Shown here piece by piece: positions 354 to 60,825 of a DNA stretch of 64,000 nt. The first letter of the stretch is position 1. Each line of letters begins with the position of its first letter. The stretch is from the NCBI GenBank assembly GCA_046483005.1, contig JAWOEA010000004.1, positions 23,323 through 87,322 on the forward strand, written 5' to 3'. The DNA comes from Candidatus Undinarchaeales archaeon. GTDB taxonomy: Archaea > Undinarchaeota > Undinarchaeia > Undinarchaeales > JALTGF01. The notes below the pieces were generated by a model. The model ran no database searches. It was not told the origin of the DNA and worked only from the letters and a program-made list of their open reading frames with translations. Position numbers and translations under genes: made by a program.

Positions 354-938
354 ATGAACGAAAAAACTAAACTAGGACTAATTGCACTGTCACTTATTGC
401 AGTGATTTTCGTAGCAGGATGCGCCGGGGGAACTCCGGAAGGAACTGAAGGAGGAGAAGAAACTACCGGCGGAGAAACTGCAAGCGGAACCGGTTCAGAA
501 TCTGCGGCCAGTTTTGCTGCAGCTATGTCATCCGGAGAAAGCTACAAATGCGTAGTCACTACCACAGATATGGAAGAACTTAATGAAATGACCATCTGGG
601 TTAAAGGCGGAGACGCCAGGGTTGAGTATGCAACAAGTGAAGGAAAAGAATACAACCAGATAAACAAGGACGACACAATCTGGTGGTGGGACCCTCAGGA
701 AAAGACAGGAATAACAAGAACAGTAACTGCTGAAGAAACTGAAGGAGAAGAAGGAACAGGAGAAGAATCAAGCGGATTTGAAACAGAAGAACTTGAAACA
801 AGTTATGAATGGGAATGCACCGCAACTTCAGTCAGCGACAGCAAGTTTAACCCGCCGGACGATGTTGAATTCATAGACATGAGCGAAGGATTCAGCTCCG
901 AAGATGTTGAAACTTTGGCAGAGCAATACGGATCTTAA
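354..938 (+). CDS. secreted or lipoprotein-like acidic Thr/Glu/Gly-rich protein (hypothetical)
   Basis: N-terminal hydrophobic signal (LGLIALSLIAVIFVAGCAGG, lipobox-like Cys), then a low-complexity acidic region. The start is placed at the internal Met (MNEKTK); the ORF-track start at 276 is probably too early. Confidence 0.45.
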   Translation: MNEKTKLGLIALSLIAVIFVAGCAGGTPEGTEGGEETTGGETASGTGSESAASFAAAMSSGESYKCVVTTTDMEELNEMTIWVKGGDARVEYATSEGKEYNQINKDDTIWWWDPQEKTGITRTVTAEETEGEEGTGEESSGFETEELETSYEWECTATSVSDSKFNPPDDVEFIDMSEGFSSEDVETLAEQYGS

Positions 939-1092
939 ACTAAAAAATGGAGGAGAGAAATGCAATCTCCTCTTGTTTTATTTTTATTAGAAAATATTTA
1001 ATTAGAATAGAAAGTATAAACTACAAATAACTCGGCGAACTCAACTACTGTCGCCTCGCGAACGAAGTGAGCGAGTGCGGCACCTGTTTTTA

Positions 1093-1147
1093 CCAGATTT
1101 TTCAGCACAGGGAACCACTTGCATAGGGAACCAATTAAAAAATCTGG
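1093..1147. other. perfect 10-bp stem hairpin (ccagattttt ... aaaaatctgg) whose loop contains a direct repeat agggaacca x2; abuts the tRNA 3' end
   Basis: The inverted repeat is read directly. It lies 3 nt from the 3' end of the minus-strand tRNA. Confidence 0.4.
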
Positions 1148-1149
1148 AG

Positions 1150-1223
1150 TGGGACCGGTGAGATTTGAACTCACGACCACGGCGCCCCGAACGCCGCATC
1201 ACACCAAGCTAGACCACGGTCCC
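1150..1223 (-). tRNA. tRNA-Pro (anticodon CGG), 74 nt, no encoded CCA
   Basis: The reverse complement folds as a cloverleaf. The acceptor stem GGGACCG pairs with CGGTCCC. The T-arm is GTGAG-TTCAAAT-CTCAC. The anticodon stem CGGCG/CGCCG carries the loop TTCGGGG, giving anticodon CGG. Confidence 0.8.
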
Positions 1224-1282
1224 GGAATTGCTGTATAATATGTATGTTGAGGTATAATTAAGTTTTTGAGGATAAATTTTTA

Positions 1283-1858
1283 TTAAATTCCAATGTCCCT
1301 AATAATTTTCTTGATTTCTTTTCCAAATTTATTCATCAATAAATAACCAACATATAATAAAACAAGAATAATAACTACATTTTCAGCAGAAAACCCTTTG
1401 ATTGAAGTTGTTTTAATTAAAAATAAAAATCCAGTAACTGTAAAGAAAATAATTTGGATAACTTTTTCGATATTACTTCCCGTGCTGAGAGGTCCTTTAA
1501 AATGAGCAAAATTACTATGTTTACCTATAGGCCAGAACCAATGAATGCCCATCTTAGTAGAAGAATCAGTTATAAAATGGCTGAGTATTCCAAGGAATAC
1601 TGCTAATGTCCAAACAATATTCTTAGATAGGATAAAAATAAGTCCAGTAATAATTAGCAAAAACCAGATATTATGGCAAACATACCTGTGTCCTCCTAGT
1701 AATTTAAGAGGTTTGCCTATAAGATGAGAAGGGTGATCAATATCCGGAATGAACGCTGCAAATCCAGCCAATAAAATAAAACCAAAATTTAAATCAAAAA
1801 AATAAAAAACTAAGGCTCCAGAAAATAAACCAGCAGATATGTGAGTTAGTAATTTCAT
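1283..1858 (-). CDS. polytopic membrane protein, possibly a membrane-bound metal-dependent hydrolase (DUF457-like)
   Basis: Several TM helices. The PDIDHPSH and H-rich motifs resemble membrane hydrolase families. Weak call. Confidence 0.3.
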   Translation of the reverse strand: MKLLTHISAGLFSGALVFYFFDLNFGFILLAGFAAFIPDIDHPSHLIGKPLKLLGGHRYVCHNIWFLLIITGLIFILSKNIVWTLAVFLGILSHFITDSSTKMGIHWFWPIGKHSNFAHFKGPLSTGSNIEKVIQIIFFTVTGFLFLIKTTSIKGFSAENVVIILVLLYVGYLLMNKFGKEIKKIIRDIGI

Positions 1859-1884
1859 TTTTCTTTAGTTTTATTTCTTAAACC

Positions 1885-2127
1885 TTAAAGCCAACCGGAT
1901 TTTTTCTTTTTCTTCTTTCTCTTGGTGTCTTTTACACGATCGCTTACTGTATAAGTTCTCTTTGCAATTCCTCTTTTCTTTGCCTTCTTTTTGCTGACTC
2001 TCTTCTTTATTTTTCCGTCAAACGGGTCCCTTAAACCAACTGACTTAGTGTTTGTGTAATGATCTACTTTTCCAGTTATTGGATTTCTAACGGCTTTTCT
2101 TTTTGTTTTCTTCTTTTTCTTTGCCAT
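1885..2127 (-). CDS. lysine-rich basic small protein (possible nucleic-acid-binding)
   Basis: MAKKKKKTKRK...KRKKKKKKSGWL, very high Lys content. A TATA-like tttttatat sits about 30 bp upstream of the MAK start. The ORF-track start at 2178 is probably an over-extension. Confidence 0.45.
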   Translation of the reverse strand: MAKKKKKTKRKAVRNPITGKVDHYTNTKSVGLRDPFDGKIKKRVSKKKAKKRGIAKRTYTVSDRVKDTKRKKKKKKSGWL

Positions 2128-2170
2128 TTTCTTGAATAAATATATGTTTTTGAGATATAAAAACCTAACT

Positions 2171-2222
2171 TTTACCACTTACAACCTTCTACCTTCCACC
2201 TACTACCTTCTACCTGCAACCT
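2171..2222. repeat. tandem heptamer pyrimidine tract (about 7 x YYTYYMM, consensus TTCTACC); contains a 30-mer identical to 2755..2784
   Basis: Read directly as tttacca cttacaa ccttcta ccttcca cctacta ccttcta cctgcaa. The exact 30-mer ccttccacctactaccttctacctgcaacc occurs twice in the window. Confidence 0.7.
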
Positions 2223-2694
2223 ATTTCTCAATATGATACCACTTATCACATTTTCGGCAGTATTTGAAAAACTCTCCATTGATTTTTTCGAATTTTGTAT
2301 AAAGTGATCCGTCTTCCGGACAAAACATTTCGCTTTCAGTATCTTCTGCGTCTCTTAGTTCTTTCTTAATTTTCTTCTTTTTCTCCCTGTGTTTTTTCTT
2401 TGCTTTTTTCTTTTGTTTCTTTGTTTTGGGCTTCTTTTTAGCTTTCTTTTTCTTGGTCTTTGTTGCAGTACTTTTACTGCCCATAACTTCATCTAAAGGA
2501 ACATTAGCAGCAACTAAAATTTCAGTCCATGTAATTTCCTTGCTTCTTGCAGCATCGTAATATTTTGCATACTTTGATTTTCTAATTGCTCTTGAAGAAA
2601 CATCTACTCCTTTCTCATATAATTCCCTTATTCTTTCTGCAAGATAAGCTATTCTTTCATAATGCTCTTTTGGATACTTCTCGTACTTTCCCAT
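2221..2694 (-). CDS. hypothetical protein with a central poly-Lys linker and a C-terminal Cys-rich Zn-ribbon
   Basis: The N-terminal helical domain is followed by a KKKKAKKKPKTKKQKKKAKKK linker and then CPEDG...CRKCDKWYH. Confidence 0.45.
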   Translation of the reverse strand: MGKYEKYPKEHYERIAYLAERIRELYEKGVDVSSRAIRKSKYAKYYDAARSKEITWTEILVAANVPLDEVMGSKSTATKTKKKKAKKKPKTKKQKKKAKKKHREKKKKIKKELRDAEDTESEMFCPEDGSLYTKFEKINGEFFKYCRKCDKWYHIEK

Positions 2695-2735
2695 ATCAAA
2701 AGTATAGAGCTGAACATTTATTTAGTTTACTAAGC

Positions 2736-2784
2736 ACTACATTTCCGCCTTCTCCCTTCCACCTACTACCTTCTACCTGCAACC
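2736..2784. repeat. second copy of the tandem heptamer tract (7 x 7 nt), shared 30-mer
   Basis: actacat ttccgcc ttctccc ttccacc tactacc ttctacc tgcaacc. It lies upstream of minus-strand gene 2221..2694 and of polB. Confidence 0.7.
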
Positions 2785-2826
2785 AAACCAAAACCCCTAT
2801 TAATACAAAACACCTACTTTCCAGTT

Positions 2827-5280
2827 ATGGGAGAATACAACTTTTGTCTGCTGGATGTAGATTATATCATAATTGATGAAAAGCCCGTAATTCGAATGTT
2901 CGGCAGAACAGACAAAGGAGAGAGTGTAGTTGCATTTGACCGGACATTTGAGCCTTATTTCTATATAGAATCTGAAAATCCGGAGGAATGCAAAAAGAAG
3001 CTTGAAATCCATGAACCTAATGATTATACGATTAAAAAAACTAAATTAACTGAAAAAATTCTCCTCGGCAAAAAGAAGAAAATGGTTAAAGTTTTTACAA
3101 AAAAACCCGGCGATGTTCCAAAGGCAAGAAGAGATGTAAAAAATATCGACCCTGTCAAAGAAGTTTATGAAGCTCATATTCTTTTTAACAGAAGATATTT
3201 ATTTGACAAAGGGCTCCAGCCGATGACTATGATTAAGGTAAATGGAAAAATAACCAACGATGTAAGGCTTAAAAAGGATACTAAAGCGGACAAATTCATT
3301 GAAATTGAGGGAAACCCAAAAAGCACGGAGAAACCAATTCCAAAATTAAAGGTAATGGCTTTTGATATTGAAGTTTACAATCCAAAAGGGGCTCCAAGAC
3401 CGAAGAAAGATGAAATTATTATGCTCTCATTGAAGTCGGGAGCAGAAGAAAAGGTAATCAGTACAAAAACAGTTGACAAATTTTCAGATAAAATAATTAA
3501 AGTGGATTCTGAACTTGATATTATTAAAAAATTCGAAGAAATTGTAGAAAAAGAGGATATAGACATCTTAGTTGGATACAACACGGACCAGTTCGATCTG
3601 CCGTATATAAGAGACAGGGCGGAGAAGCATAAACATACCTTCAAGCTTGGAAGAACTAATGATAAAATCAAGTTCAAGACGAAAGGAATGTTCGCCGCCG
3701 CTGAAATTAAGGGCAGGGTGCATGTCGATTTATTCCATTATGTTTCATACATCCTTAGAGGTGCTTTAGGAAGTGTAAGTAAGAGGACTCTTTCAAATGT
3801 AGCCCATGTCTTCCTTGATAAAGGAGAAGAAAAAGGAGATATTGACTGGAGAGACATGCCGGAATACTGGAACTCGGACGGCAAAAAACTGGAAACATTT
3901 TTTGAATACTCATTAAATGACGCTGTTATTACTAAACAGCTGTCAGATATTTTCACGCCGAAAATTTATGAAATTGCAAAACTTGTAAAAGTTCCTTTGT
4001 TTGATGCCAACAGAACTTCATACGGACAGTTGGTTGAGAACTATTTAATTTGGAATGCACATGAGAAGGGAGAAGTTGTCCCGAACCGGCCGAAAGAGGC
4101 AGAAAGAGAGAGCAGATATAAAAACGGCTCAATTACAGGGGCTTACGTTCATGAGCCGGAAAAAGGCATGCACGAAGATATTGCACTGCTGGATTTCAGG
4201 TCGCTGTATCCTACAATTATTATTTCGCATAATATTGACCCGGGAACTATTGACTGCAGTTGTTGCAGGGAGACTGCTGAAAGAATTGGAGATACCGGAC
4301 ACTGGTTCTGCGATAAGAGAAAAGGACTGATTCCAACTGTTCTTAATGATATTTTGAATAAGAGAATTAAAATCAAGGAAAAAATGAAAAAACTGGATAA
4401 AGGCAGTCAGGAATATTCTGAATTAGACAATGAACAATATGCTTTGAAAATTCTGGCAAACTCTGCATACGGCTACTTAGCTTACAGAAATGCAAGATGG
4501 TATACAAGAGAGGGAGCTGAATGCGTTACATATCTTGGAAGGATGTATATTAAGAAGATTATGAAAATTGCTGAAAAGAAAGGACTTGATGTCATATATG
4601 GAGACACTGACAGTTTATTTGTTACTACAAAAGAAGGCAAAATAAAGGAGAAACTTCCCGAATTCATGGAAAAAGTCAAGCCGGTTCTCCCCGGAGTTAT
4701 GGAGCTGGAGCTCGAAGGTATTTTCAGAAGAGGCATTTTTGTTTCAAAGAAAAGATACGCTTTAATTGATGATACGGATACAATGAAAATCAAGGGGCTT
4801 GAATTCGTAAGGAAAGACTGGTCCCCTTTAGCAAAAGAAACTCAAAAAAATGTTCTGCAGGCCTTGCTGAAAGACGGTTCTGCTGACAGAGCATTCGAAA
4901 TTGTCAGAAAAGTAATTAAAAAAATAAAATCAGGAGATGTAAAAAAAGAAGACCTTGCAGTTTATACTGAATTGACAAGACCTTTGGATAAATACAAAGT
5001 TACTGCACCCCATATTGCTGTCGGGGAAAGAATGAAGAGAAAAGGCAAGAAAGTAACTACCGGAACTACTGTCGGATATATTATTATGAGAAACGGAGGA
5101 AAAAATATCAGCAGCAGGGCAAGGTCAGTTGAAGAAGCACAACTGAAAAAGTATGACAAGAACTACTATATTAAAAAGCAGATAATTCCAGCCGTTTCAA
5201 GAGTAATGGAAGCTTTAGGTTACGGTGAAGATGAGCTTCTGGGAAAGAAGCAGGAAACACTGGAGGAATACTTTCAATGA
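2827..5280 (+). CDS. polB: family B DNA polymerase
   Basis: 817 aa. The exonuclease motif FDIEV and the polymerase motifs YGDTDS and KILANSAYG are present. The N-terminus is of the LLDVDYI type. Confidence 0.9.
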   Translation: MGEYNFCLLDVDYIIIDEKPVIRMFGRTDKGESVVAFDRTFEPYFYIESENPEECKKKLEIHEPNDYTIKKTKLTEKILLGKKKKMVKVFTKKPGDVPKARRDVKNIDPVKEVYEAHILFNRRYLFDKGLQPMTMIKVNGKITNDVRLKKDTKADKFIEIEGNPKSTEKPIPKLKVMAFDIEVYNPKGAPRPKKDEIIMLSLKSGAEEKVISTKTVDKFSDKIIKVDSELDIIKKFEEIVEKEDIDILVGYNTDQFDLPYIRDRAEKHKHTFKLGRTNDKIKFKTKGMFAAAEIKGRVHVDLFHYVSYILRGALGSVSKRTLSNVAHVFLDKGEEKGDIDWRDMPEYWNSDGKKLETFFEYSLNDAVITKQLSDIFTPKIYEIAKLVKVPLFDANRTSYGQLVENYLIWNAHEKGEVVPNRPKEAERESRYKNGSITGAYVHEPEKGMHEDIALLDFRSLYPTIIISHNIDPGTIDCSCCRETAERIGDTGHWFCDKRKGLIPTVLNDILNKRIKIKEKMKKLDKGSQEYSELDNEQYALKILANSAYGYLAYRNARWYTREGAECVTYLGRMYIKKIMKIAEKKGLDVIYGDTDSLFVTTKEGKIKEKLPEFMEKVKPVLPGVMELELEGIFRRGIFVSKKRYALIDDTDTMKIKGLEFVRKDWSPLAKETQKNVLQALLKDGSADRAFEIVRKVIKKIKSGDVKKEDLAVYTELTRPLDKYKVTAPHIAVGERMKRKGKKVTTGTTVGYIIMRNGGKNISSRARSVEEAQLKKYDKNYYIKKQIIPAVSRVMEALGYGEDELLGKKQETLEEYFQ

Positions 5281-5909
5281 TTAAATGGATTTTCTTTGAT
5301 ATTGACAACACGTTGTATGAATCAAAAAAATTGGCTGAAGAAGCCAGAAAAAATGCAGTAAATGCAATGATATCTGCAGGACTGCCGGTTCAGTCGGTTT
5401 CAGAGACTTACACAAAATTAAAGCAGATAATAGATGAATACGGTCCGAATTATTCAAAACATTTCGATAAGCTTGTTGAACAGTTTGATGTTGCAGAAGA
5501 TAAATACGATATAATCGCTGCAGGAGTTATTGCATATCATAATACTAAATTCGCCATGCTGAAACCCTCATTTGAAATTATAAATACTTTGAAAGAGCTG
5601 AAAAAAGAATATAGATTAGGGATAATTTCAAACGGCAGACCAGTTAAACAAAGAGAAAAATTAATCCGGCTTGACTTGCAGGACTTTTTTGAAGTTGTTG
5701 TAATTTCTGAAGAAATCGGCACTCAAAAACCGAAACCGAAAATATTCAGGACAGCAGTTGAAAATGCGGGCTGCAAACCGGAAGAAGCAGTCATGATAGG
5801 AGACAAAGAATCAGATATGGCAGCTGAAAAAATTGGAATGCATACCATAAATATTAAAGATTTAGAAGACTTTGAACAAATTAAAACAGAGGTTGATGAT
5901 ATTGAATGA
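5277..5909 (+). CDS. HAD-superfamily hydrolase
   Basis: Motif I FFDIDNTL (DxDxT) and motif IV GDKESD are present. It overlaps the polB stop by 4 nt. Confidence 0.7.
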   Translation: MIKWIFFDIDNTLYESKKLAEEARKNAVNAMISAGLPVQSVSETYTKLKQIIDEYGPNYSKHFDKLVEQFDVAEDKYDIIAAGVIAYHNTKFAMLKPSFEIINTLKELKKEYRLGIISNGRPVKQREKLIRLDLQDFFEVVVISEEIGTQKPKPKIFRTAVENAGCKPEEAVMIGDKESDMAAEKIGMHTINIKDLEDFEQIKTEVDDIE

Positions 5910-6456
5910 AAAAATAAAAGAGGCAGTCGAAGCTTTAAAAAATGGAGGAGTCATTGTTTATCCTACAGAGACGGTTTACGGTTTAGGGGCGGATATATTT
6001 AATGAAAAGGCAGTTAAGAAAATTGCAGGAATGAAGGGCTGGAAAGAAAAGAGACCGATTTCAGTTGCATTAAAAGAAGACCAAATTGAAGATTTTGCAG
6101 TTGTTGATGACAATTCACTGGAATTAATTGACAGGCTTCCCGGTCCAATGACACTTGTTTTAAGAAAACAGAATAAAGTTCCAAACTGGATTACAGAAAC
6201 AGATTATGTAGGACTAAGAGTTCCTGAAAGTGAAACTGCAATGCTGCTTGCCGAAAATTTTGGTCCGATTACTTCTACTTCAGCCAATGTCAGCGGGCAG
6301 AAAGCCCCTTATAAAGTTGAAAATATAGATGAACGGATAAAAGAAAAAGCAGATTACATTTTAGATGAAGGAGAAACCAGATATAAGGCTCCGAGTACGG
6401 TAGTTAAGATAAATGATGATATTGAGATACTCAGAGACGGTGTTTTAGAAATATGA
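5899..6456 (+). CDS. tsaC: L-threonylcarbamoyladenylate synthase (YrdC/Sua5/TsaC domain)
   Basis: Carries the classic VYPTETVYGLGAD motif. The start is placed at MILNEK; the ORF-track start at 5872 overlaps the upstream gene. Confidence 0.8.
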   Translation: MLNEKIKEAVEALKNGGVIVYPTETVYGLGADIFNEKAVKKIAGMKGWKEKRPISVALKEDQIEDFAVVDDNSLELIDRLPGPMTLVLRKQNKVPNWITETDYVGLRVPESETAMLLAENFGPITSTSANVSGQKAPYKVENIDERIKEKADYILDEGETRYKAPSTVVKINDDIEILRDGVLEI

Positions 6457-7349
6457 ATTCAGAAGTTTTAAAAAAATACAAGGAAGCAGGAAAAATCTGG
6501 AAGAAGGCTGAAAAGCTCGGGAGAAAACTCGTTAAACCCGGAACAAAAGTCCTGGACATTACTGAAAAAATTGAAGCTTTAATTAGAGAAGAAGGCGGAG
6601 AAATGGCTTTTCCTTTGAATATTGGAATTGATGATGTTGCAGCTCATTTTACTCCTGATTCGGACTGTAAAATTGAAATTAAAGAAGATTCTCTGATAAC
6701 TTTAGATATTGGAGTTCATGTAGACGGATACATTGCTGATGCCGCATTTACATTAAGTATGAGTGAATCAGAAGAACATATGAATTTAATTGAAGCCGCT
6801 GAAAAATCTTTAGAAAATGCAATTGAAGTTGTTAAGCCTGGGGTCAATGTTGAAAAAATAGGAGAAGCTGTTGAAGAAACTATGGAAGAATATAATGTTA
6901 AACCAATTTCAAATTTAACGGGACATAACGTTGATCAGTATTCACTGCATTCAGGACTGACAATTCCAAATGTTAAGAAAAAAGGAGGAACTATAAAGGC
7001 AGGTACTGCAATTGCAATTGAACCTTTTTCTACGAACGGAGCCGGGCAGGTTCATGATGCACAGGAGATTCATATTTATGAGTTTTTGAAAAAGAAAAAT
7101 ATCAGAATGCAGGAAAGCAGGAAAATTCTGCAGATGGCTGAACGTGACTTTAATAAACTGCCTTTTGCAAAAAGATGGCTTGAAAAAAATGTAAGCAGTT
7201 TAAAGTTAAAAATGGCCCTGAAAGAGCTGCTTGATGCCGAAGCATTGTATCAATATCCTGTCTTAAAGGAGAAGGAAAAAGGACTAGTCGCCCAGGCAGA
7301 ACATACTATGATAGTCCAGGAAGACGGAGCTCTTTTAACTACTGCATAA
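6453..7349 (+). CDS. map: methionine aminopeptidase, archaeal type 2
   Basis: 298 aa with the pita-bread fold metal ligands. The size and sequence are typical of archaeal MetAP. Confidence 0.8.
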   Translation: MNSEVLKKYKEAGKIWKKAEKLGRKLVKPGTKVLDITEKIEALIREEGGEMAFPLNIGIDDVAAHFTPDSDCKIEIKEDSLITLDIGVHVDGYIADAAFTLSMSESEEHMNLIEAAEKSLENAIEVVKPGVNVEKIGEAVEETMEEYNVKPISNLTGHNVDQYSLHSGLTIPNVKKKGGTIKAGTAIAIEPFSTNGAGQVHDAQEIHIYEFLKKKNIRMQESRKILQMAERDFNKLPFAKRWLEKNVSSLKLKMALKELLDAEALYQYPVLKEKEKGLVAQAEHTMIVQEDGALLTTA

Positions 7350-10243: not shown

Positions 10244-10244
10244 T

Positions 10245-10535
10245 TTATATCTCGTTAACTTCTCTTAAATCCTTAAGTTTCTGAAGCAGGAACTGTTCGT
10301 ATTGGTCTATGATAGTATCTATATTTTCTCCTTGTTCTCCTTTAAAAAAGTTTGCAATTTCAGCCCATATTTCCTCGTTGAATTCCTCGCAACCCATTAA
10401 ACCGCTTACCATAACTACATTTACAGTGGTTGTAAAGGATAAATCAAGTCCGCTGGCTATCATATTGCCTCTCAGCTTTTGGATTGTGTCATAAAGTTTC
10501 TTATTTATTGAGATGGTTTTTCTCACAACAGTCAT
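10245..10535 (-). CDS. small hypothetical protein, possibly a ribbon-helix-helix-like regulator, abutting the cdc48 start
   Basis: 96 aa. The N-terminal [16 protein letters not shown] resembles an RHH beta strand plus helix. Its stop abuts the cdc48 start. Confidence 0.3.
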
Positions 10536-10657
10536 TATATTTCCCTCAAGTATGAAATGATGAAAGTGTTACTATTTAAGGTTTTGGGTGGTATTTACTC
10601 AGGAAAGAGTGGAAAAGCTCTGCCGATGTCGGTTTTTAGAAAACACCCCCAAATTAA

Positions 10658-10675
10658 CTGAGTTCAGTTAAAAAA
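10658..10675. promoter_or_regulatory. perfect palindrome TTAACTGA-gt-TCAGTTAA upstream of the radB TATA box, candidate operator
   Basis: 8+8 inverted repeat with a 2-nt spacer, about 20 bp upstream of tttataaaa, which lies about 27 bp upstream of the radB ATG. It sits in the divergent intergenic region shared with the cdc48 operon. Confidence 0.4.
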
Positions 10676-10707
10676 AGTTTATAAAATCAAAAGCACGCAG
10701 TATAACT

Positions 10708-25379: not shown

Positions 25380-25829
25380 ATGGAATTTGAAGTTAAGTTG
25401 GTTTCCCCGGAAAAAAAGTATCTTGATGCTTGTTTTAGAGACGTCAAAAAACGACTTAAAGAATATTTAGGTGCTAACTACTGGTTTTTAGCTTATAAAG
25501 AAAATAAAATTGTTGGATTCATAGCTGTGAGAGAAACTGATGACTTTAGAGAGATGGAAGCCTATTCACTACCCATTGACTTTTCACCTGGTGAATTTGA
25601 ACCATTTATTTATGTTGAGATGGCATATGTAAGTAAGAAATTCCTGAAAAAAGGCGCATGGTCCTCATTAAGAAATAAATTAGATGAAGTTGCAGATGAA
25701 AATAAGATAAATGTTATCACAGAAATCGCTAACAATAACTCTTTTTTAATTAAAAAATTGAAAGAAAAAGGATATAAAAAGATTGCAAAAAGCAGAGATT
25801 TCAACTACCTTTTCAAAAAAAACAAGTAG
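25380..25829 (+). CDS. hypothetical protein (possibly GNAT-like fold)
   Basis: 149 aa. The call is weak. Confidence 0.3.
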   Translation: MEFEVKLVSPEKKYLDACFRDVKKRLKEYLGANYWFLAYKENKIVGFIAVRETDDFREMEAYSLPIDFSPGEFEPFIYVEMAYVSKKFLKKGAWSSLRNKLDEVADENKINVITEIANNNSFLIKKLKEKGYKKIAKSRDFNYLFKKNK

Positions 25830-25864
25830 CTTGCCTGATGCCGATTCTTAAAAAAACAAAGATT

Positions 25865-26119
25865 TGTGAGGAGAAATGTTTCGGTCAAGTCTCACATTTC
25901 AGCTGAAAAACAGCAGAAAACTCTCCAAAAATGAAAAAATTAACCCTCACATTCCGGTTTTTCCGGCGTAAAAAGCTGCCGGGACCCACAGAACTTGTTC
26001 AAACTCAATTTTTGGTTCTAAAAGAAGTCTCACATTTGAGCATTTTGAGCACAAAAATAACATATCTGCTGTTTCTGGGCCTATTTTCGGTTTTCAGACA
26101 GAAAAATTAAATCTCACAT
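25865..26119. repeat. left array: one TGTGAGG (+) then four TCTCACAT motifs (at 25891, 25947, 26029, 26113), spacing 56-84 bp, upstream of the wHTH gene at 26280
   Basis: Read directly as aagtctcacattt (x2), cctcacatt and atctcacat. The array is the reverse complement of the one at 29177..29538. Confidence 0.65.
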
Positions 26120-26279
26120 GAGTTGTTCAGAAAAATTTTCGGATATTTTCTTAAAAATTATGTAAACTATGTAGTGGACGTGTCGTATTGTCGATAGATA
26201 TTGATTTTTAAGATATGTCTACTCGTCGCCTGACATGTAAACTCGCAAGATATATAAACTTTGAAAATAAAGGAAGAAC

Positions 26280-26825
26280 ATGGATCTGCTAAAAGCTATC
26301 GGTTTAAAGAAAAAAAAGAAAAAGAAAAAGTCCAAAAAGAAGAAAAAAACGTCAACTAAATCCAAAAAGAAAAGTAAAAGCAAGAGCAAGAAAGAAAGTA
26401 AACAGAAAAAACAAGTTGAAGATCCGGTTATGACAGTTTCCCGTCAGCTGACCAACATACGACGCGACTTACAGGACATGGACTCAGTTGTGCGTAACGG
26501 TTTTCAGGGACTTAGAGCAGACCACCATAGAATTCTTGAAGAGCAGTTCGATAAAGAAGACCTGGAAGAGTTCAAAAAATGGACCGAAAAAAGAAAACTC
26601 ACATTAAAGCAGATAAAAGGAAAGGTTGAAGACGAGCTTGAGATGATCGAAATCGACCGGAAGGTCCTTGATTTGATTGAAAAAGAAAAAAAGAGATCTG
26701 CTGAAATTGCAGAGGAACTAGAAATAAGCAGACAGTACGCTTCCGAAAGACTGAACGAATTAATCGACCAGAAACTTGTCAAAAGAGTGAAAAAAGGCAG
26801 AAAGGTCTACTACAAAGCAAGCTAG
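26280..26825 (+). CDS. winged-helix DNA-binding protein with poly-Lys N-terminal tail
   Basis: The N-terminus is KKKKKKKKSKKKKKTSTKSKKKSKSKSKK. A C-terminal wHTH (EIAEELEISRQYASERLNELIDQKLVKRVKKGRKVYY) is present. Confidence 0.55.
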   Translation: MDLLKAIGLKKKKKKKKSKKKKKTSTKSKKKSKSKSKKESKQKKQVEDPVMTVSRQLTNIRRDLQDMDSVVRNGFQGLRADHHRILEEQFDKEDLEEFKKWTEKRKLTLKQIKGKVEDELEMIEIDRKVLDLIEKEKKRSAEIAEELEISRQYASERLNELIDQKLVKRVKKGRKVYYKAS

Positions 26826-26889
26826 TGGTTTTATACAGGAAACAAAGACCAGGTAAAAGTTTTTAAAGCTGTTTGACTTACTGGGAAGC

Positions 26890-27405
26890 ATGGCAAAGAG
26901 CAAAAAATTCTGGAAACTGTTGATAATCAATACCTTGGACAGTATTCAGGAGATTGATACTGTTGTTGAGGGACTTGTTGTCGGTATTTTTGGTATTTTG
27001 CTTGGCATCGCCGGTTTCTGCTATTTTGGGTACATCGGATTAACATTGTCTGCAGAGATTTCCTTGCTAGCGGTTTTTGCATATCTAGCAGTTAGTTTCT
27101 ATCATATTTACGCTTATGAAAGAGACAAGAAAAGAGCAGACGGGTCAATAGGAAGAGTTGTTGAAAGGAGTGCAGAAATATTGATTCTCTTGATAGCGAT
27201 TATGGTTTTTTATGTTTTGATTTTTGAGCAGATATTAACCGTAAGAAGTATTGCGGATTTGGTCAGAAATTCAAGAGGATTAATGGCAGTAATGATGAAA
27301 AGTCTGCCTGGGCTTGCGGTTTTAGTCGTTCCTTTATTTGGCTGGGAATGGTTTGCTGAAAAGACTCCAACAGACGATATTTTGAAAAAGGTGTTTAAGA
27401 AATGA
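26890..27405 (+). CDS. membrane protein (4-5 TM)
   Basis: Hydrophobic helices are spread throughout the sequence. Confidence 0.45.
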   Translation: MAKSKKFWKLLIINTLDSIQEIDTVVEGLVVGIFGILLGIAGFCYFGYIGLTLSAEISLLAVFAYLAVSFYHIYAYERDKKRADGSIGRVVERSAEILILLIAIMVFYVLIFEQILTVRSIADLVRNSRGLMAVMMKSLPGLAVLVVPLFGWEWFAEKTPTDDILKKVFKK

Positions 27406-27677
27406 ACAACACTACTGAAACCATTCAAAATGTTGAGAAAACTGTCAGTTTAATTGATAAAATCGCACACTATCTCGGTAGTTTATCTGACTTGGCAAGC
27501 AAAGGTAATGCATACATGCAGGCTCTCGGACTGAGCCAGACGCAGTCCTATGCAGTTATTGCAATAATTGCACTGGTTGCCCTGCTCGGAGTGTTTAAAT
27601 TTTTGAAAATCATTACCAAGGTCTTGATTTTTGGACTAGTTATTTGGATTATTTTAAGCTTAGTTGGAATTTTGTAG
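27402..27677 (+). CDS. small membrane protein, paralog of 27746..28009
   Basis: LKIITKVLIFGLVIWIILSLVGIL aligns with LKIVTKVMIFALTLGFIGLFLGVAAGII in the neighbouring gene. Confidence 0.45.
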   Translation: MNNTTETIQNVEKTVSLIDKIAHYLGSLSDLASKGNAYMQALGLSQTQSYAVIAIIALVALLGVFKFLKIITKVLIFGLVIWIILSLVGIL

Positions 27678-27745
27678 ACCGAAAGATATAGAAAGGAAAA
27701 AGACCACTAATTTTCCCGGAGGGAGAAAGGCAGTGATATAGGCAG

Positions 27746-28009
27746 ATGGAAATAACTACTCTGCTCTGGATCTTAGAACTTATTAGCAGTATTATGGCTG
27801 CTATTGCTGGTTTTATTGGCTGGCTGTTCTCTGCATTTATGGGAATCGGTCTCAGTTATCTGCATTCATCTATTTTAATTGGAATTGTCTTTCTGGTTGG
27901 CTTCTATCTGGTTTTCGTAATGCTCAAAATTGTAACAAAGGTTATGATATTTGCATTAACTCTTGGATTTATTGGGTTATTTTTAGGTGTAGCTGCTGGA
28001 ATAATTTAA
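27746..28009 (+). CDS. small membrane protein, paralog of 27402..27677
   Basis: It shows the same conserved pattern as its paralog. Confidence 0.45.
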   Translation: MEITTLLWILELISSIMAAIAGFIGWLFSAFMGIGLSYLHSSILIGIVFLVGFYLVFVMLKIVTKVMIFALTLGFIGLFLGVAAGII

Positions 28010-28518
28010 TCTCTTGATTTCGCTTTTGCTGTTTCAACTATTGATTTATATTCGTTTCCAACTTGTTTAAGAAATATTGAAAATTCAGTGCTCGGTTTGA
28101 TTATTTTTTTATAATATTTCTGTTTCTTCCGCTTGCTTGCGAATTTCTCTCTTTTTACTGAAACCATCCCTACTTTTTTTAATCTTGGAAGGATTATATT
28201 GTAAAAAGTTGCTTTTGAATAGTCATTTTTCTTAATAAATTCACCCAAATCGTCTCCATGCAGCTCGGTTTTTTCCAAAAGTAAATTCATGAAATTAGTT
28301 GCAACTTCATTGTATACTTTCTGATACTTTTCCGGAAAGATCAACTGTATTATCTGCTCCAGTTCTAAACGGACGCCCTGATGGTACTTCCACTCTTTCC
28401 TTAGCTTTCTCAAGTCATTAAGCCATAGACTTTCCTTGCTTGGAACGCCTCTACTGGGCGGGCTCTGTCCGGAATTGGACGTTTCTCTCTCAATATCACT
28501 TTGGTGTGTTTCGGTCAT
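28006..28518 (-). CDS. hypothetical protein
   Basis: 170 aa, basic, with no motif. Confidence 0.35.
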   Translation of the reverse strand: MTETHQSDIERETSNSGQSPPSRGVPSKESLWLNDLRKLRKEWKYHQGVRLELEQIIQLIFPEKYQKVYNEVATNFMNLLLEKTELHGDDLGEFIKKNDYSKATFYNIILPRLKKVGMVSVKREKFASKRKKQKYYKKIIKPSTEFSIFLKQVGNEYKSIVETAKAKSRD

Positions 28519-28780
28519 TGTTTCTTTATACCTTCGTCAGATATATAAAACTTACCACTATGGTAAACTCTTCAGAGAAAAGAAAAAAGGAGATAATTGA
28601 GTGGGTTTATTATTATGGTGTTGAGTGGGAAATCTCTCTGCTGGGGGCCCGGTTAAACGACTGGTTCGGGAAAATTTAGCTCTATTTAGGAAAAACAGGT
28701 GTTTTTGTTTACCAATGTGGTGTTTAATTAGTAGTAGAATATGAGGAATAAGTGAATAAATACTGCATACCATTTTGGTG

Positions 28781-29068
28781 TTAAATATCTTTCAGAGTTA
28801 GAAGGTTTTCAATGTGGTTTGCGAGCTTATGGCCCTCTTCTGTAAGCTCGATATACTTGGTCCTGCCGTCTTTTTCCGTTTCAATGAGGCCCATTCTTTC
28901 CATCTTCTTAACTAGTTTGGATGCATGAGCATAAGTGCAGTCAATGTGTTTTGCAAGAGAATTGGTATATGGATCTTCCTTTCTTTTTATTGAAACCAGC
29001 AGCCTGGCAGGCATTTTCTGGAAGAAAAGTCCTTCAATGTCGGTTGATTTTATTGAATTTGCCATCTC
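28781..29068 (-). CDS. small winged-helix transcription regulator (MarR/TrmB/ArsR-like)
   Basis: The wHTH reads LAKHIDCTYAHASKLVKKMERMGLIETEKDGRTKYIELTEEG. The start is placed at MANSIK. The 100-aa N-terminal extension in the ORF track is translation of the repeat-rich intergenic region. Confidence 0.5.
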   Translation of the reverse strand, partial: EMANSIKSTDIEGLFFQKMPARLLVSIKRKEDPYTNSLAKHIDCTYAHASKLVKKMERMGLIETEKDGRTKYIELTEEGHKLANHIENLLTLKDI

Positions 29069-29176
29069 AATTGCCGATATGTTGTTCTGATTTATATAGT
29101 TTAATGTATGGTTAATTGTAAATAAATCAGAATTTATTTTAAATCGATAGACTGAGGACATATATTTATTGAAATT

Positions 29177-29538
29177 TGTGAGAGATAGATTTTTGGTATA
29201 AAAAGGAGTATGAAAGTATGAATAGATGAAAATAGTAGTAAACAGGAAAATGTGAGACTTTCTAACCGAAAGAATTGGGCTAACGAGATGAGTGAGTGAA
29301 AATAGCCGGTCAGGAGCTGTCTTTGAGTGGATTTGTGAGAGGTTGCTGTTCGATTGGTAGGAAATTTGACCGGACAAGTATTTTGAGACAGCAGAAAAAA
29401 ATGGTTTTTGAAAGAGTATAAAACAAGAAAATTAGAAGGGCGCTATATGCTGATTGTGAGAGTGAGTATGAAAGTATGAAAATCATACAGCCTCCCTAAA
29501 TTGTGAAACTTGTCCAGACCGAAAAAGTAAGTCTCACA
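29177..29538. repeat. right array: four TGTGAGA (+) motifs (at 29177, 29251, 29334, 29455) then one TCTCACA (29532), spacing 74-121 bp; also 2x gtatgaaagtatgaa (29208, 29466)
   Basis: Read directly. aatgtgagacttt is the reverse complement of aagtctcacattt found in the left array. Confidence 0.65.
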
Positions 29539-29609
29539 AAAACAAGATGCTGCGCCAGACAAATGGAGGGAGAGAAAAGTATAATTAATAGATTAGAGAT
29601 AAACTTGAT

Positions 29610-29897
29610 ATGAGAAGTAAAAAGCCGGCGTGCCACTTCTGCGGAAGTAAAAAAGTTGTCGTTCTGGAGACAGAGCATCCGGAAAACAGACATCCTGGAG
29701 ACAAAAGATGGTCAGAAGTATCCTTAATTGATATTCTCAGATGGGTTAATGATGAAAAGAAGAAAGTTGACGGGAAAGATATAAGCAGACTTGTACCTGA
29801 TTTTGTAAAAAACTGGATGAGGATAGGAGTTAAGTTTGAGCTCTGTCCGGAATGTAAAAGAATTGCAATTTCGCCGATGAAACAAAAGAGGCTTTAG
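29610..29897 (+). CDS. small Zn-ribbon protein
   Basis: CHFCGS...CPECKR, 95 aa. Confidence 0.4.
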   Translation: MRSKKPACHFCGSKKVVVLETEHPENRHPGDKRWSEVSLIDILRWVNDEKKKVDGKDISRLVPDFVKNWMRIGVKFELCPECKRIAISPMKQKRL

Positions 29898-43917: not shown

Positions 43918-43919
43918 AG

Positions 43920-44558
43920 ATTCAGAAACTAGTGAAACCCTCTGAGCCCTTTATTTCTATTGGAGATTAGAAAAATTGTCTCCATTTCCGAAAACTTTTG
44001 GAAAAATTTGAACTTTCTGAAATGAAAATATTGGATTTTTAGGTTTTTATGAAAAATCTCCACTTGAAATAATGGTGTGTTTTTAATATTTGTGAGGCGC
44101 AGGTTTTTGGTTTAGTTAGTTTTAGTAATACTATTTATTATTATTTATTATTATCTTTATGGAAAATATTTATTTATTATTTATTATCCATATAGAAAAT
44201 ATTTCACTTACAAACAAAACAACACACCCCTTTATTTCCCGTGGAGAACCCCTTTATTTCCTGTAGAGCTAAAAAGAAAGCCATTTTGGGCTTTAAATTC
44301 AAAATAAATAAATTTTTTAAAGTTTTTTACCAAACGAAACAGAATTTTGGACCTTTTAGACTCTCTCAACAAGACTCTAAAAGAAGAAAAAGCGCCCTTT
44401 TCCCAAACAAAGCCATCAAATCTATTTGTTCCACCTGAAATGAAGGGGGTGTGGGTTCCAAAAGTACTTATTTTGACAAATAAATATATAAACCAGTATT
44501 TCCTATGCAAAAAAGCAGTTAAAAAGTTGATCTTTTTTCTGCAGTGGGGTAAAAATTA
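43920..44558. other. oriC: chromosomal replication origin (oriC): ORB elements with G-strings flanking an AT-rich duplex-unwinding element, immediately upstream of orc1/cdc6
   Basis: ORB-like ctccacttgaaataatggtgtg (44058-80, +), ttccacctgaaatgaagggggtgtggg (44429-55, +), cacacccctttatttcccgtggag (44223-46, reverse complement = ctccacgggaaataaaggggtgtg) and aacccctttatttcctgtagag (44248-69, reverse). The DUE at 44120-44205 is made of (tatttattat)n. A weaker ORB lies at 43980. Confidence 0.7.
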
Positions 44559-45752
44559 ATGGCACAAAAGAAATTAGATGATCTATTCGACAACTTCCTA
44601 AATAAACAATCTCTTTTTAAGAATAAAAGGACTCTACAAGATGTTTATACACCTGAAACAGTTCCTCACCGCGAAGATCAAATTAAACAACTTGCTTCTA
44701 TACTCGTTTCAGCTTTAAGGGGTGAAAAACCTTCAAATGTTTTCGTTTATGGTAAAACCGGAACTGGTAAAACACTAGTTTCAAAATATGTAGCCAAAGA
44801 GCTTGAAACTCGTTCAAAAAGAGAACAAAGAAAACTTAAAGCAAGCTACCTTAATTGCAAAATGGAGAAAGTAAATACTTCATATCGACTGCTTGCTCAT
44901 TTTATTAATGAATTAGGTGAAGATGTCCCTGCAACCGGACTTCCTACAGACCAGGTTTATAAAAAATTCCTTAAAACAATTGATTCCGAAGGAGGGGTCC
45001 ATATTTTAATACTCGATGAGATAGAATCCCTTACTGATTCAAATATTCTCTATGATTTAACAAGAATCAACACTGAATTAGAAAATGCAACAATTACTAT
45101 TGTAGGGATTACAAATGATTTGTCTTTTACTGATGATCTAGATTCAAGAATAAAATCAAGTTTGTCAGAAGAGGAACTTGTTTTCCCTCCATATAATGCA
45201 ATACAACTTCAAGATATTCTTTCTCAGAGAGCAAACACTGCATTAGAAAACGGATGTCTGGAATCTGGAACAATTGAAAAATGTGCTGCACTTGCAGCTT
45301 TGGAACACGGTGATGCTAGAAGAGCTCTTGATTTGTTAAGAGTTGCCTGTGAACTTGCAGAACGGGAGAGTGAAGATTCAGTGACAATCAGGCATGTTGA
45401 GCTGGCACAAAAGAAACTTGATATTGATCGGATTGTTGAAGTGGTCAAAACTCTGCCTAAGCAATCTCAAATTGTTTTAAACAGTATAATTTATTTAAAA
45501 GACCTGAATAAAGAAGAAGTAGCAACAGGAGATGTATTTGAAGTTTATAAAAATTTCTGCAAACAACTTGGAAACTCACCTTTAACTCAAAGAAGAGTAT
45601 CTGATTTAATTTCTGAACTAGATATGCTTGGTTTAATCAACGCGACAATTATTTCAAAAGGAAGGTATGGAAGAACGAGAAAAATAAAGCTGGATATGTC
45701 TGAAAAAGCACTGGAAGACAGCAAGGAAATTCTTAAACAGGAATTATTATGA
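44559..45752 (+). CDS. orc1: Orc1/Cdc6 replication initiator (AAA+ plus winged helix)
   Basis: It has the Walker A VYGKTGTGKT and Walker B LILDEIE motifs and a C-terminal wH. Confidence 0.9.
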   Translation: MAQKKLDDLFDNFLNKQSLFKNKRTLQDVYTPETVPHREDQIKQLASILVSALRGEKPSNVFVYGKTGTGKTLVSKYVAKELETRSKREQRKLKASYLNCKMEKVNTSYRLLAHFINELGEDVPATGLPTDQVYKKFLKTIDSEGGVHILILDEIESLTDSNILYDLTRINTELENATITIVGITNDLSFTDDLDSRIKSSLSEEELVFPPYNAIQLQDILSQRANTALENGCLESGTIEKCAALAALEHGDARRALDLLRVACELAERESEDSVTIRHVELAQKKLDIDRIVEVVKTLPKQSQIVLNSIIYLKDLNKEEVATGDVFEVYKNFCKQLGNSPLTQRRVSDLISELDMLGLINATIISKGRYGRTRKIKLDMSEKALEDSKEILKQELL

Positions 45753-55383: not shown

Positions 55384-56631
55384 TTAAATTAAGAAAGTTG
55401 TAGCTAGAATTAAAAATATAAAGAAACCGAATACATCTGTCAAAGTTGTTATAAATATGCTAGAGGCAGATGCAGGATCAAGGTTCATTTTTTTCAGAGT
55501 CAAGGGAATTACAGTTCCTGCAGTACATGCAATTAGCAAATTAATGATTATAGAGGCCCAAACAATAATGCCAAGGAGCCACATGCCGTTTATAACATAA
55601 GCAACAACTGCAACAACTAATCCAGTTATAGCTCCGTCAATTACCCCGGCACCCATTTCTCTCAGTAAAATTCTGAATTCATTTCCCTTCTTAATTTCTT
55701 TCAGAACAAGGCCTCTGACAACAATTGCCAAAGTCTGTATGCCTGCATTTCCTCCCATTCCTGCGACAATCGGCAGATATACTGCTAAAATTACATATTG
55801 TGAGATAGTATCTTGAAATAAACCAATAACCGATGCTGCAATAAATGCAGTGAATAAATTAATTATGAGCCATTTATATCTGTATTTCACTTTTGTAAAC
55901 ATGTTATCCAACACATCTTCTTCTCGATTGACGCCTGCAAATCCATATAGGTCTTCAGTGGTTTCCTTCTGAATTACATCCAGCAGGTCTTTTGCATAAA
56001 TAACTCCAATAACCGAACCGTCGTCATCATAAACAACTACTCTTCCATGCGGATGCCTTTTAATAACTTTTAAACATTCTCTGTGTTTTGCATCATATTC
56101 TATACACGGAATATCAGAAATAAGATCTTCTATTTCCGTTTCACTTGTAACCATCAATTCATGCAGAGGGATTTCTCCTTTTAAAGTGCCATTATCAAAT
56201 ACTAAAATCACGGGCTCCTTTCCTGTCCTTTCAACATGTTCTTCAACATGCTCATAAACTTCATCTACAGTTGCATCTTCAGGGACTTCTATATAATCAA
56301 TGTTCATCATCCCTGCTGCTCTTTTAGGATAAAAATTAAAGAAAAATTCTGATTTTTCTTTCAGCTCAACTTTAAGATCCTCAAGTATTATTTTCCTTTT
56401 CCTTTTACTCAAAACAGCCAATACATCTTCAATTTCATCCGGATCAAGAAAATGACAGAATTTTTTTATTTCTTCTCTTTTCATACCTTTCAAGATCTTT
56501 TTTCTCAGTTTTTTGCCAACACTCAAAAGAACAAATCCTTGCTCACTCGGAGGAATCTCTCTGAAAACTTCAAGCTTATTTCTCTTTTTCTTTAAATCAG
56601 AAATTATTTTGGAAAGTTCGCTTTTAACCAT
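55384..56631 (-). CDS. mgtE: magnesium transporter MgtE
   Basis: It has an N domain, tandem CBS domains, and a 5-TM C-terminal domain with a GNAGIQT-like motif. Confidence 0.8.
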   Translation of the reverse strand: MVKSELSKIISDLKKKRNKLEVFREIPPSEQGFVLLSVGKKLRKKILKGMKREEIKKFCHFLDPDEIEDVLAVLSKRKRKIILEDLKVELKEKSEFFFNFYPKRAAGMMNIDYIEVPEDATVDEVYEHVEEHVERTGKEPVILVFDNGTLKGEIPLHELMVTSETEIEDLISDIPCIEYDAKHRECLKVIKRHPHGRVVVYDDDGSVIGVIYAKDLLDVIQKETTEDLYGFAGVNREEDVLDNMFTKVKYRYKWLIINLFTAFIAASVIGLFQDTISQYVILAVYLPIVAGMGGNAGIQTLAIVVRGLVLKEIKKGNEFRILLREMGAGVIDGAITGLVVAVVAYVINGMWLLGIIVWASIIINLLIACTAGTVIPLTLKKMNLDPASASSIFITTLTDVFGFFIFLILATTFLI

Positions 56632-60365: not shown

Positions 60366-60660
60366 CTCGAATATAATATTGACTTTCTTTAAATATCTTT
60401 TTGAAATTAATTGTCTTTATTTATCGTTTTTTAATAATTTAATTGTCATACTTTTACTGTCATCAGACAAATTAGAGTCTTCAATTTCTTTCATTGTGTT
60501 TTCCGTAGTAGTATCTTCAGATTCGTCTAATGATATTTTTTCCATTGTCATTTTTATTTCATCTCTTTTTTTTATGTAGTTATAAAATATAATTAGGTTA
60601 GATAGTATTTATTTTTTTAGTTTAAGCAACCAATCCTATAATTTATATGTTTATTTGCAT

Positions 60661-60822
60661 AATAATTGATATGCCTTGGAAAATAAAACCTATCGATAAA
60701 TCAAAAATAAAAAAAGATAAATTATTATTAGAAAACCTTTTAGGAGAACTTTCAAAGAAAAAAGAAACTCCTAAAGTGAAAAAGTTAAAAGCAGAAATTG
60801 AAAAGATAAAAGAAGAACTCTA
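60661..60822 (+). CDS. small Lys-rich coiled-coil peptide (53 aa), convergent with the rSAM gene; speculative
   Basis: Manual translation: MPWKIKPIDKSKIKKDKLLLENLLGELSKKKETPKVKKLKAEIEKIKEEL. Confidence 0.2.
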
Positions 60823-60825
60823 GAA

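Follow-up and report, generated by a model that had tools for sequence, protein, structure and literature searches.

Mirror-image arrays of a conserved TGTGAG motif flank a winged-helix gene module in an Undinarchaeales archaeon and are candidate binding sites for a module-encoded protein

The DNA analyzed here is a 64-kb stretch of the chromosome of a Candidatus Undinarchaeales (DPANN) archaeon, which we refer to as the window. Two long noncoding spacers in the window, at positions 25830-26279 and 29066-29609, bracketed a module of six small genes (A to F), and each spacer carried an array of five sites built around the motif TGTGAGA (TCTCACA on the opposite strand). The sites were clustered, followed an orientation rule, were helically phased, were selectively conserved in related genomes, and were linked to a module containing the winged-helix genes A, E, and F. 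In our judgment, the chances are about even that the arrays are phased upstream binding sites for a winged-helix protein encoded in the module and that they co-regulate the two convergent operons of the module (A-B-C-D and F, E). An earlier note on this DNA had described mirror-image TCTCACA arrays around the module, and this description was borne out; the arrays were nonrandom, and the positions and orientations of the sites matched. The ten sites, which we named L1 to L5 (left array) and R1 to R5 (right array), are listed below.

25865 to 25885, plus strand: L1, the outermost left composite site, TGTGAGG-N6-GTTTCGGT, inverted relative to L2 to L5
25879 to 25896, minus strand: L2, TGTGAGA-N4-ACCGAAA, which reads GTCTCACAT in the plus-strand direction
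25945 to 25951, minus strand: L3, a CCTCACA variant of the core
26010 to 26034, minus strand: L4, TGTGAGA-N10-AACCAAAA
26098 to 26118, minus strand: L5, composite site TGTGAGATTTAATTTTTCTGT
29177 to 29197, plus strand: R1, composite site TGTGAGAGATAGATTTTTGGT
29251 to 29271, plus strand: R2, TGTGAGA-N6-AACCGAAA
29334 to 29340, plus strand: R3, a TGTGAGA core
29455 to 29461, plus strand: R4, a TGTGAGA core, absent in the relative L010
29518 to 29538, minus strand: R5, the outermost right composite site, ACCGAAAAAGTAAGTCTCACA on the plus strand, inverted relative to R1 to R4

TCTCACA occurred 11 times in the window when both strands were counted, compared to 7.6 expected occurrences. This total was unremarkable, and the signal was in the clustering: 8 of the 11 copies were located in the two spacers, which make up 994 bp of the 64,000 (Poisson P ~1.5e-11 for at least 8 of 11). 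The copies in the spacers were at 25890, 26028, and 26112 on the plus strand; 29177, 29251, 29334, and 29455 on the minus strand; and 29532 on the plus strand. Thus, the motif was not equally dense throughout the window; an even density was what the earlier note had named as grounds for doubt. The two additional array members were CCTCACA variants at 25865-25871 (TGTGAGG on the plus strand) and 25945-25951. The proposed number of five per array was correct for sites, but two of the left sites differed from the motif at the first base.

When TGTGAG on the plus strand is written as >, the order of sites was > < < < < in the left array and > > > > < in the right array. The left spacings were about 26, 55/56, 82/83, and 84 bp, and the right spacings were 74, 83, and 121 bp, followed by about 77-78 bp to the inverted R5, in agreement with the spacings claimed previously. 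L1 and L2 had a CGGT/ACCG element in common, and the distance between their cores was 25-26 bp. The same-orientation spacings grouped around whole multiples of 10.5 bp (Rayleigh p ~0.001, a generous figure that was derived from pooled related genomes). The 13-mer AAGTCTCACATTT, which had been reported to be shared by the arrays, was found at 25887 and 26025, and its reverse complement was found at 29248. The spacers themselves, which the earlier note had called unusually long, were 450 and 544 bp in length; they were the fifth and second longest of the 66 intergenic gaps, the median gap was 28.5 bp, and the longest gap in the window was the replication origin. A second repeat in the right array, GTATGAAAGTATGAA, occurred twice as described, and its full extent was the following 17-mer.

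29206 to 29222, plus strand: second repeat GAGTATGAAAGTATGAA, copy 1, in the F-side array only; kept in L002, partly in L010, and also in L020
29464 to 29480, plus strand: second repeat GAGTATGAAAGTATGAA, copy 2

Inspection of the sites indicated that TCTCACA was the core of a composite site of ~22 bp, TGTGAGA-N4-10-TTTYGGT. The aligned sites shared an invariant TGTGAG(A/G) core and had the consensus WWTGTGAGA(C/G)TT followed by a T-rich run, and the second element (TTTYGGT/ACCRAAA) was located 4-10 nt from the core in either orientation. The best-conserved version of the composite was ACCGAAAAAATAA(G/A)TCTCACA(T/A)GA. Outside the arrays, the composite was found in the window only twice, once inside gene A and once in the replication origin (oriC), where it was located between an origin recognition box (ORB) and the DNA unwinding element (DUE).

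26583 to 26603, minus strand: composite site in the A coding sequence, TGTGAGTTTTCTTTTTTCGGT; the codons are WTEKRKLTL
44091 to 44111: composite site in oriC, TGTGAGG-N6-TTTTTGGT

At the DNA level, L002, L010, and L011 retained the intragenic site in A, and constraint on the site was inseparable from constraint on the coding sequence. The oriC site read TGTGTGG in L017 and was absent in L018 and L019. We regarded it as unproven because it was not conserved and because its matrix score, 16.2, was inside the range obtained with shuffled sequence (maximum, 17.5). The position weight matrix used for scoring was trained on the relatives L010, L011, L012, L020, and L023 only; the window and L002 were excluded. 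With this matrix, each of the ten window sites was among the 15 highest-ranking of 128,000 positions, and the number of hits scoring at least 14 in the window was 9, compared to 1.1 expected in shuffled sequence. A metagenome-wide scan with the 21-nt composite pattern yielded 16 loci; the module was present in one of them (L023), and the other 15 were single chance matches.

L002, the closest relative, was found by a genome scan with the neighboring M17 peptidase (93% identity); L010, L011, L012, L013, L015, L016, and L020 were found via homologs of E and A; and L023 came from a metagenome scan with the composite pattern. The module with arrays was present in L002, L010, L012, L020, and L023, and the contig of L011, which was truncated, contained the A-side array only. 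Some of these relatives were distant: identities were 62% for E and 47% for A in L012 and 52% for E and 46% for A in L023. In every array-bearing genome, the arrays were located upstream of A and F, and the orientation rule was constant in that the sites upstream of A and those upstream of F faced the same way relative to their own gene. The inverted outermost site was found in both arrays of the window, L002, and L012, in the F-side array only of L010 and L020, and in neither array of L023. The number of sites per relative ranged from 3 to 15. L015 and L016 had E alone, in other contexts, and their E loci had no arrays.

A phylogenetic footprint test indicated that, in orthologous spacers, the motif was better conserved than the neutral background. 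When the window was compared to L002, 59 of the 60 positions in the motif cores were identical, and identity over the remainder of each 24-bp site was 80-88%. The spacers were 65-71% identical, which was similar to the codon third positions of the module genes (59-75%). Similarly, in three- and four-genome alignments, 70-90% of the core positions and 16-36% of the spacer positions were invariant. Conservation with L002 started exactly at L1 and stopped ~7 bp past R5. R1 was the best-conserved site; over 21 bp, it had one change in L002 and none in L010, and its first 13 nt were the same in L013. Despite the change in spacer sequence, spacings were held across genomes (74/74/75, 83/83/82, and 84/84 bp), and the 162-bp distance from the end of L5 to the A start codon was kept in L010 and L011. 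The earlier suggestion of a cooperative regulator, made on the basis of sites 7-8 helical turns apart, fits these whole-turn spacings of 74, 83, and 84 bp, which were kept as the spacer sequence drifted. The note had also named a segment syntenic and identical in all relatives, with no array-specific conservation, as an argument against its proposal. Synteny was indeed seen, but the array-specific conservation was clear; together they largely refuted the idea of an insertion and not the idea of a functional array. In a literature search on Undinarchaeota, we came across no account of this locus.

From end to end, the module consisted of one array, A, a variable set of small genes, E, F, and the other array, and its genes were as follows.

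26280 to 26825, plus strand: gene A, in which a disordered Lys-rich N terminus and a pair of long helices are followed by an ArsR/MarR-type winged helix-turn-helix (wHTH) domain at the C terminus
26890 to 27405, plus strand: gene B, a small membrane protein
27402 to 27677, plus strand: gene C, a small membrane protein
27746 to 28009, plus strand: gene D, a small membrane protein and a paralog of C
28006 to 28518, minus strand: gene E, an extended winged-helix protein of 170 aa in which the motif SKATFYN..LPRL..GM is invariant
28781 to 29065, minus strand: gene F, a 94-aa minimal MarR/HTH_27-type winged-helix protein

This gene content, including the paralogy of C and D, was largely as the earlier note had described it; the exception was E, which had been listed as a 170-aa hypothetical protein and is also a winged-helix protein. 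In the case of A, a Foldseek search with the AlphaFold model returned generic, ArsR/SmtB-like winged-helix neighbors, among them AspA, a small wHTH centromere binder. A weak PHROG match to "replication initiation" (E = 0.001) covered only the wHTH domain of A. The AlphaFold model of E had weak, generic winged-helix fold likeness to TFE-alpha, PadR, Lrs14, and MarR proteins, and a profile search with E against PDB sequences gave no match. E was a core gene of Undinarchaeota; its 41 homologs were all apparently of this lineage, it also occurred without arrays, and it is vertically inherited. The B-C-D cargo between A and E varied among relatives, and B, C, and D had no annotation in Pfam, NCBIfam, PHROGs, or PADLOC, which assigned the other three open reading frames (ORFs) to wHTH proteins only. 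The recognition helices of A (S/T-R-Q-Y-A-x-x-R-L) and F (C-T-Y-A-H) were conserved. Because neither the core motif nor any of the three recognition helices (A, E, and F) varied, co-variation cannot be used to pick the binder.

Closer to the promoters than the arrays were other conserved motifs. A promoter matrix learned from 38 window genes described a motif composed of a transcription factor B recognition element (BRE) and a TATA box, with the consensus AAAAAGTTTAAAAA, about 36 nt before the ATG; this distance indicated that the mRNAs are leaderless. Relative to these promoters, two further regions stood out.

26150 to 26250, plus strand: conserved block at the A promoter, containing two copies of ATGTAAAC as well as GACGTGTCG and, immediately before the TATA box, CTCGTCGCCTGACATGT
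28519 to 28780: E-F spacer, with ACCA-N3-TGGT palindromes at 28554-28564, 28711-28721, and 28769-28779

The block at the A promoter (~100 bp, containing ACATGT) was nearly invariant in four genomes, and its motif was unlike the array motif; L013 had perfect TTGACATGTCAA palindromes at the matching position. This block is probably a separate operator. The first E-F palindrome, GAGTTTACCAnnnTGGTAAGT, adjoined the TATA box of E and was conserved in five genomes, and the ACCA-N3-TGGT palindromes probably represent a third, separate type of operator. The ACATGT block, the ACCA-N3-TGGT palindromes, and the GAGTATGAAAGTATGAA repeat are candidate autoregulatory operators. The E-F spacer also contained a GC-rich conserved stretch, CTGGGGGCCCGGTTAAACGACTGGTTCGGGAAAATTT, at 28620-28680, and its GGGCCC core was found in L020 as well.

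Our favored explanation, that the arrays are phased upstream binding sites for a module-encoded winged-helix protein, starts from the placement of the sites 110-465 bp upstream of the two operons, with four sites per array co-oriented relative to the adjacent gene and one outermost site inverted. In the proposed mechanism, one or more winged-helix proteins of the module would occupy the sites on one face of the DNA. The best candidate binders are A, with its coiled coil and Lys-rich tail, and/or F, because arrays were found only in genomes that have A and F. Upstream of the two promoters, the protein would assemble cooperatively into an extended nucleoprotein complex, which would place the two operons under joint control, and the mirror-image arrays may pair into a loop of ~3.3 kb. 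The identity of the binder, its cooperativity, the looping, and the choice between activation and repression are parts of this model that we infer from the sequence. Several observations weigh against it. The sites, at -110 to -465, are far upstream of characterized archaeal operators and activator sites, and palindromes are the usual targets of winged-helix dimers, but the core is asymmetric. The three conserved motifs closer to the promoters could be the true operators, in which case the arrays would be left to another factor. In addition, the phasing statistic overstates independence because the pooled genomes are related, L020 had reduced arrays with fewer sites, and L013 kept A, E, and F but had only three scattered sites.

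The distance of the sites from the promoters, the two-fold symmetry of the locus, and the inverted outermost sites at the exact edges of the conserved block would also suit a structural role, in which the arrays are loop anchors, a boundary, or a centromere-like complex that is built by A or another chromatin protein and serves chromosome organization rather than promoter control. The long helical hairpin and disordered poly-Lys tail of A, the presence of AspA among the structural neighbors of its wHTH domain, and the location of the module 15 kb from oriC in this genome point the same way. We nevertheless consider such a role unlikely: the module had no ParA/SegA-type ATPase or SMC-related gene (the sole nearby ParA-fold gene was a Get3/ArsA homolog), the module and cdc6 were ~70 kb apart on one contig in L020, the likeness of A to AspA is generic to winged-helix domains, and the number of sites varied widely among relatives. 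It is also rather doubtful that the arrays are orientation-dependent anchors that A, with or without F, pairs into a closed ~3.3-kb loop, forming an insulated mini-domain around the module; if this were true, the mini-domain would be a lineage-specific archaeal counterpart of lambda OL-OR looping or of convergent-site loop anchors, conserved across a DPANN order. Two opposed groups of about five oriented sites are arranged as in a fork trap, oriC contains one composite site, and a replication terminator protein was among the weak fold matches of E, so we considered whether the module is a replication element, namely, a second iteron-type origin, a locus that titrates initiator, or a polar fork barrier or trap (Tus-Ter, RTP). 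We think that the chance of this is very small. A complete canonical origin was found at 43918-44558, in a spacer of 641 bp that immediately precedes orc1/cdc6 (44559-45752); this gene is followed by the PolD DP1 and PolD DP2 genes. It contained four ORBs (consensus TCTCCACnGGAAATAAAGGGGT), with ACCCCTTTATTTCCnGTGGAGA at 43945, 44226, and 44248 and an inverted copy at 44057, and the ORBs surrounded the AT-rich DUE at 44120-44205; these features were conserved in L017, L018, and L019. Thus, the module was rejected as an Orc1/Cdc6 origin. The array sites differed in sequence from ORBs, and the arrays had no ORB, DUE, or adjacent orc1 gene. The iteron system proposed earlier did not hold up, as spacings of 55-121 bp are unlike those of tandem two-turn iterons and the module had no Rep or AAA+ initiator. 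Furthermore, the oriC copy of the motif provides little help for a replication role given its lack of conservation and its score, and a terminus 15 kb from the origin would make no sense.

Mobility is what the earlier note had in mind when it likened the arrays to the terminal inverted repeats of an integrated element, and it had recommended looking for an empty site in relatives. On this account, the arrays are the ends of an integrated or long-domesticated element, with subterminal transposase or integrase sites as in Tn7, Mu, or the arms of lambda att. Some features are compatible with it: a 24-nt imperfect inverted repeat was present at the outer edges (25863-25886 and 29517-29540, 75% complementary) and the termini read TG...CA; the gene content just outside both edges differed from that of L002, and the A-E cargo was variable; and a tRNA-Gly(CCC) gene adjoined an array in L013, L020, and L023, the module of L023 was inverted relative to one flank, and L012 had a 23-bp direct repeat. 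Flanking repeats gave a mixed picture: L012 had this repeat outside both arrays, and the window had no target-site duplication or attachment (att) direct repeats. However, the rest of the evidence went against mobility. The window was an ordinary stretch of archaeal chromosome (PolB, Cdc48, topoisomerase IA, SerRS, M17 peptidase, arginase, Hef, Orc1/Cdc6, and PolD), and the module occupied the same locus in L002, L012, L013, and L020, between a SerRS/M17 (or M42/RTC) side and a g95/PRC/M50/ADSL/Hef side; L023 retained the g95-Hef flank only, and the contigs of L010 and L011 were too short to show flanks. No empty site, and hence no clean indel, was found among the few relatives available. As the earlier note had stated for integrase and Rep, none of the six ORFs was an integrase, transposase, or Rep in Pfam, NCBIfam, PHROGs, or PADLOC searches of the window ORFs, the relatives had the same gene set, and none of these genes was found in any other copy of the module. 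Scans of IMG/VR with E, A, and the site pattern and a tblastn search of PLSDB with E yielded no relatives, and the GC content of the module was ordinary (0.36-0.38, compared to ~0.35 in the window). The window arrays contained no tRNA fragment, and the inner sites were opposite in orientation to the terminal site, unlike in Tn7 and Mu; E, moreover, is a vertically inherited core gene. The fixed locus and the lack of a mobility gene, viral relative, GC anomaly, or empty site leave the mobile-element idea unsupported, and the residual hints (edge genes, cargo, tRNA-Gly, L023 inversion, and L012 repeat) led us to assign a slim probability to recombination at the arrays or to an element that was domesticated long ago. 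Even less credible, at close to the bottom of our scale, is an invertible segment in which the inverted arrays would serve as recombination sites for flipping the 3.7-kb module. Inverted repeats do bound the module, and the module of L023 was inverted relative to the g95-PRC-M50-Hef flank, but this was a single event over deep divergence; the other six genomes had the same orientation, no recombinase gene was located nearby, and inversion would not rewire the promoters because the module is two-fold symmetric. Finally, we judged it improbable, to about the same degree as an integrated element, that the arrays are tandem weak promoters or small noncoding RNA genes, with each ACCGAAAAA-TAAG-TCTCACA unit being a BRE/TATA-like element plus a downstream operator that gives rise to short transcripts. 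ACCGAAA plus an A/T-rich run does resemble some real promoters, such as the one preceding D (27678) and that of the gene at 55384-56631, and unit lengths of 74-84 bp are within the size range of small RNAs. On the other hand, the array sites did not score with the genome promoter matrix, whose top hits in the spacers were the A, F, and G promoters, and the spacer sequence evolved at a neutral rate. Rfam searches gave no match in the window at the gathering score or in 25700-29700 at E values up to 1, and ARAGORN detected no tRNA in the window arrays. The fold z-scores of the spacers (-1.8 to -3.0) largely reflected the ability of inverted sites to pair with each other (in the right array, R1 with R5). 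A 59-aa ORF in the left array was rejected as a gene; it was frameshifted in L002 and not conserved.

Three known systems are functional analogues of the proposed array complex, and we do not consider them homologous to it: EarA sites, lambda OL-OR, and wrapped Lrp promoters. The winged-helix activator EarA binds four 6-bp sites upstream of the BRE of the fla promoter in Methanococcus maripaludis (PMC5512572). Both arrangements have several copies of a short, nonpalindromic motif upstream of an archaeal promoter and a small winged-helix reader, which is predicted in our case. The EarA sites, however, are immediately upstream of the BRE, whereas the array sites are 110-465 bp upstream, 7-8 turns apart, and part of a ~22-bp composite; they also form two mirror-image arrays around the regulators' own genes, and we make no claim that A, E, or F is related to EarA in sequence. 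In the lambda immunity region, the OL and OR operator triplets flank cI-rexA-rexB, and a CI octamer closes a loop of ~2.4 kb. The likeness lies in two operator clusters around a cassette of a few kilobases that encodes a regulator and a small membrane protein, for which cooperativity between clusters would be a natural model. Lambda operators, in contrast, are palindromic 17-mers that are adjacent to each other and overlap outward promoters, whereas the sites described here are asymmetric, widely spaced, upstream of inward genes, and without a phage context. Ss-LrpB and other Lrp-type regulators wrap DNA at regularly spaced boxes, which are palindromic and 2-4 turns apart. Helically phased sites upstream of the regulator's own gene are common to both cases, and the cooperative wrapping proposed here is an Lrp feature, but the module had no Lrp/AsnC (RAM-domain) protein.

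Two other comparisons were less apt. Like the ends of Tn7 and Mu and the arms of lambda attL and attR, the arrays are mirror-image clusters of ~22-bp sites at both ends of a segment with TG...CA termini. Unlike those ends, they were accompanied by no transposase or integrase and no presence/absence polymorphism, and they were at a fixed locus across the order, with inner sites inverted relative to the terminal site. Archaeal oriC regions with Orc1/Cdc6 ORBs likewise have ~22-bp inverted repeats in a long spacer, but the oriC of this genome had a different consensus, and the arrays had no ORB, adjacent orc1 gene, or DUE.

To our knowledge, gene regulation and chromosome organization in DPANN archaea are almost uncharted, and no member of the Undinarchaeota has been cultured. 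The present locus provides a defined, conserved cis element, a ~22-bp composite in phased and oriented arrays, that is linked to three candidate winged-helix binders, and because of this physical linkage it is directly testable in vitro. Should the arrays prove to assemble into a complex that is cooperative or looped, they would be among the clearest sequence-predicted higher-order regulatory architectures in a reduced archaeal genome. The analysis also removed a false lead, the integrated element, and located the true replication origin of the genome.

Some minor features of the window and of the surroundings of the module were also recorded. Two more long spacers, at 10244-10707 (464 bp) and 60366-60825 (460 bp), were without an Rfam or tRNA match and without a TGTGAG array. 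The gene content at the outside edge differed between the window (25380-25829) and L002 (~5456-6102), which lacked the GNAT acetyltransferase gene; L002 also had an extra gene of ~215 aa between R5 and the Zn-ribbon gene. The tRNA-Gly(CCC) genes beside the arrays were located at 6688-6781 in L013, 10455-10526 in L020, and 4225-4320 in L023, where the gene was between sites; two of the three had an intron, and the window, L002, L010, and L012 had no such array-side gene. The 23-bp direct repeat of L012, TTTCTATACArGTGTATAGACAG, is a near-palindrome that was found in this relative only, at 6806-6828 and 10594-10616, just outside both arrays; it may serve the flanking genes as an operator or may be an att-like repeat. 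In L023, the inversion (900-4470) included the whole module and both arrays, as judged against the conserved right flank, which carries g95, PRC-barrel, M50 peptidase, and Hef. In the distant relatives (L016, 12740-15568; L015, 6382-6808), we observed an RtcB gene with a LAGLIDADG intein and a HicA/HicB-like toxin-antitoxin pair.

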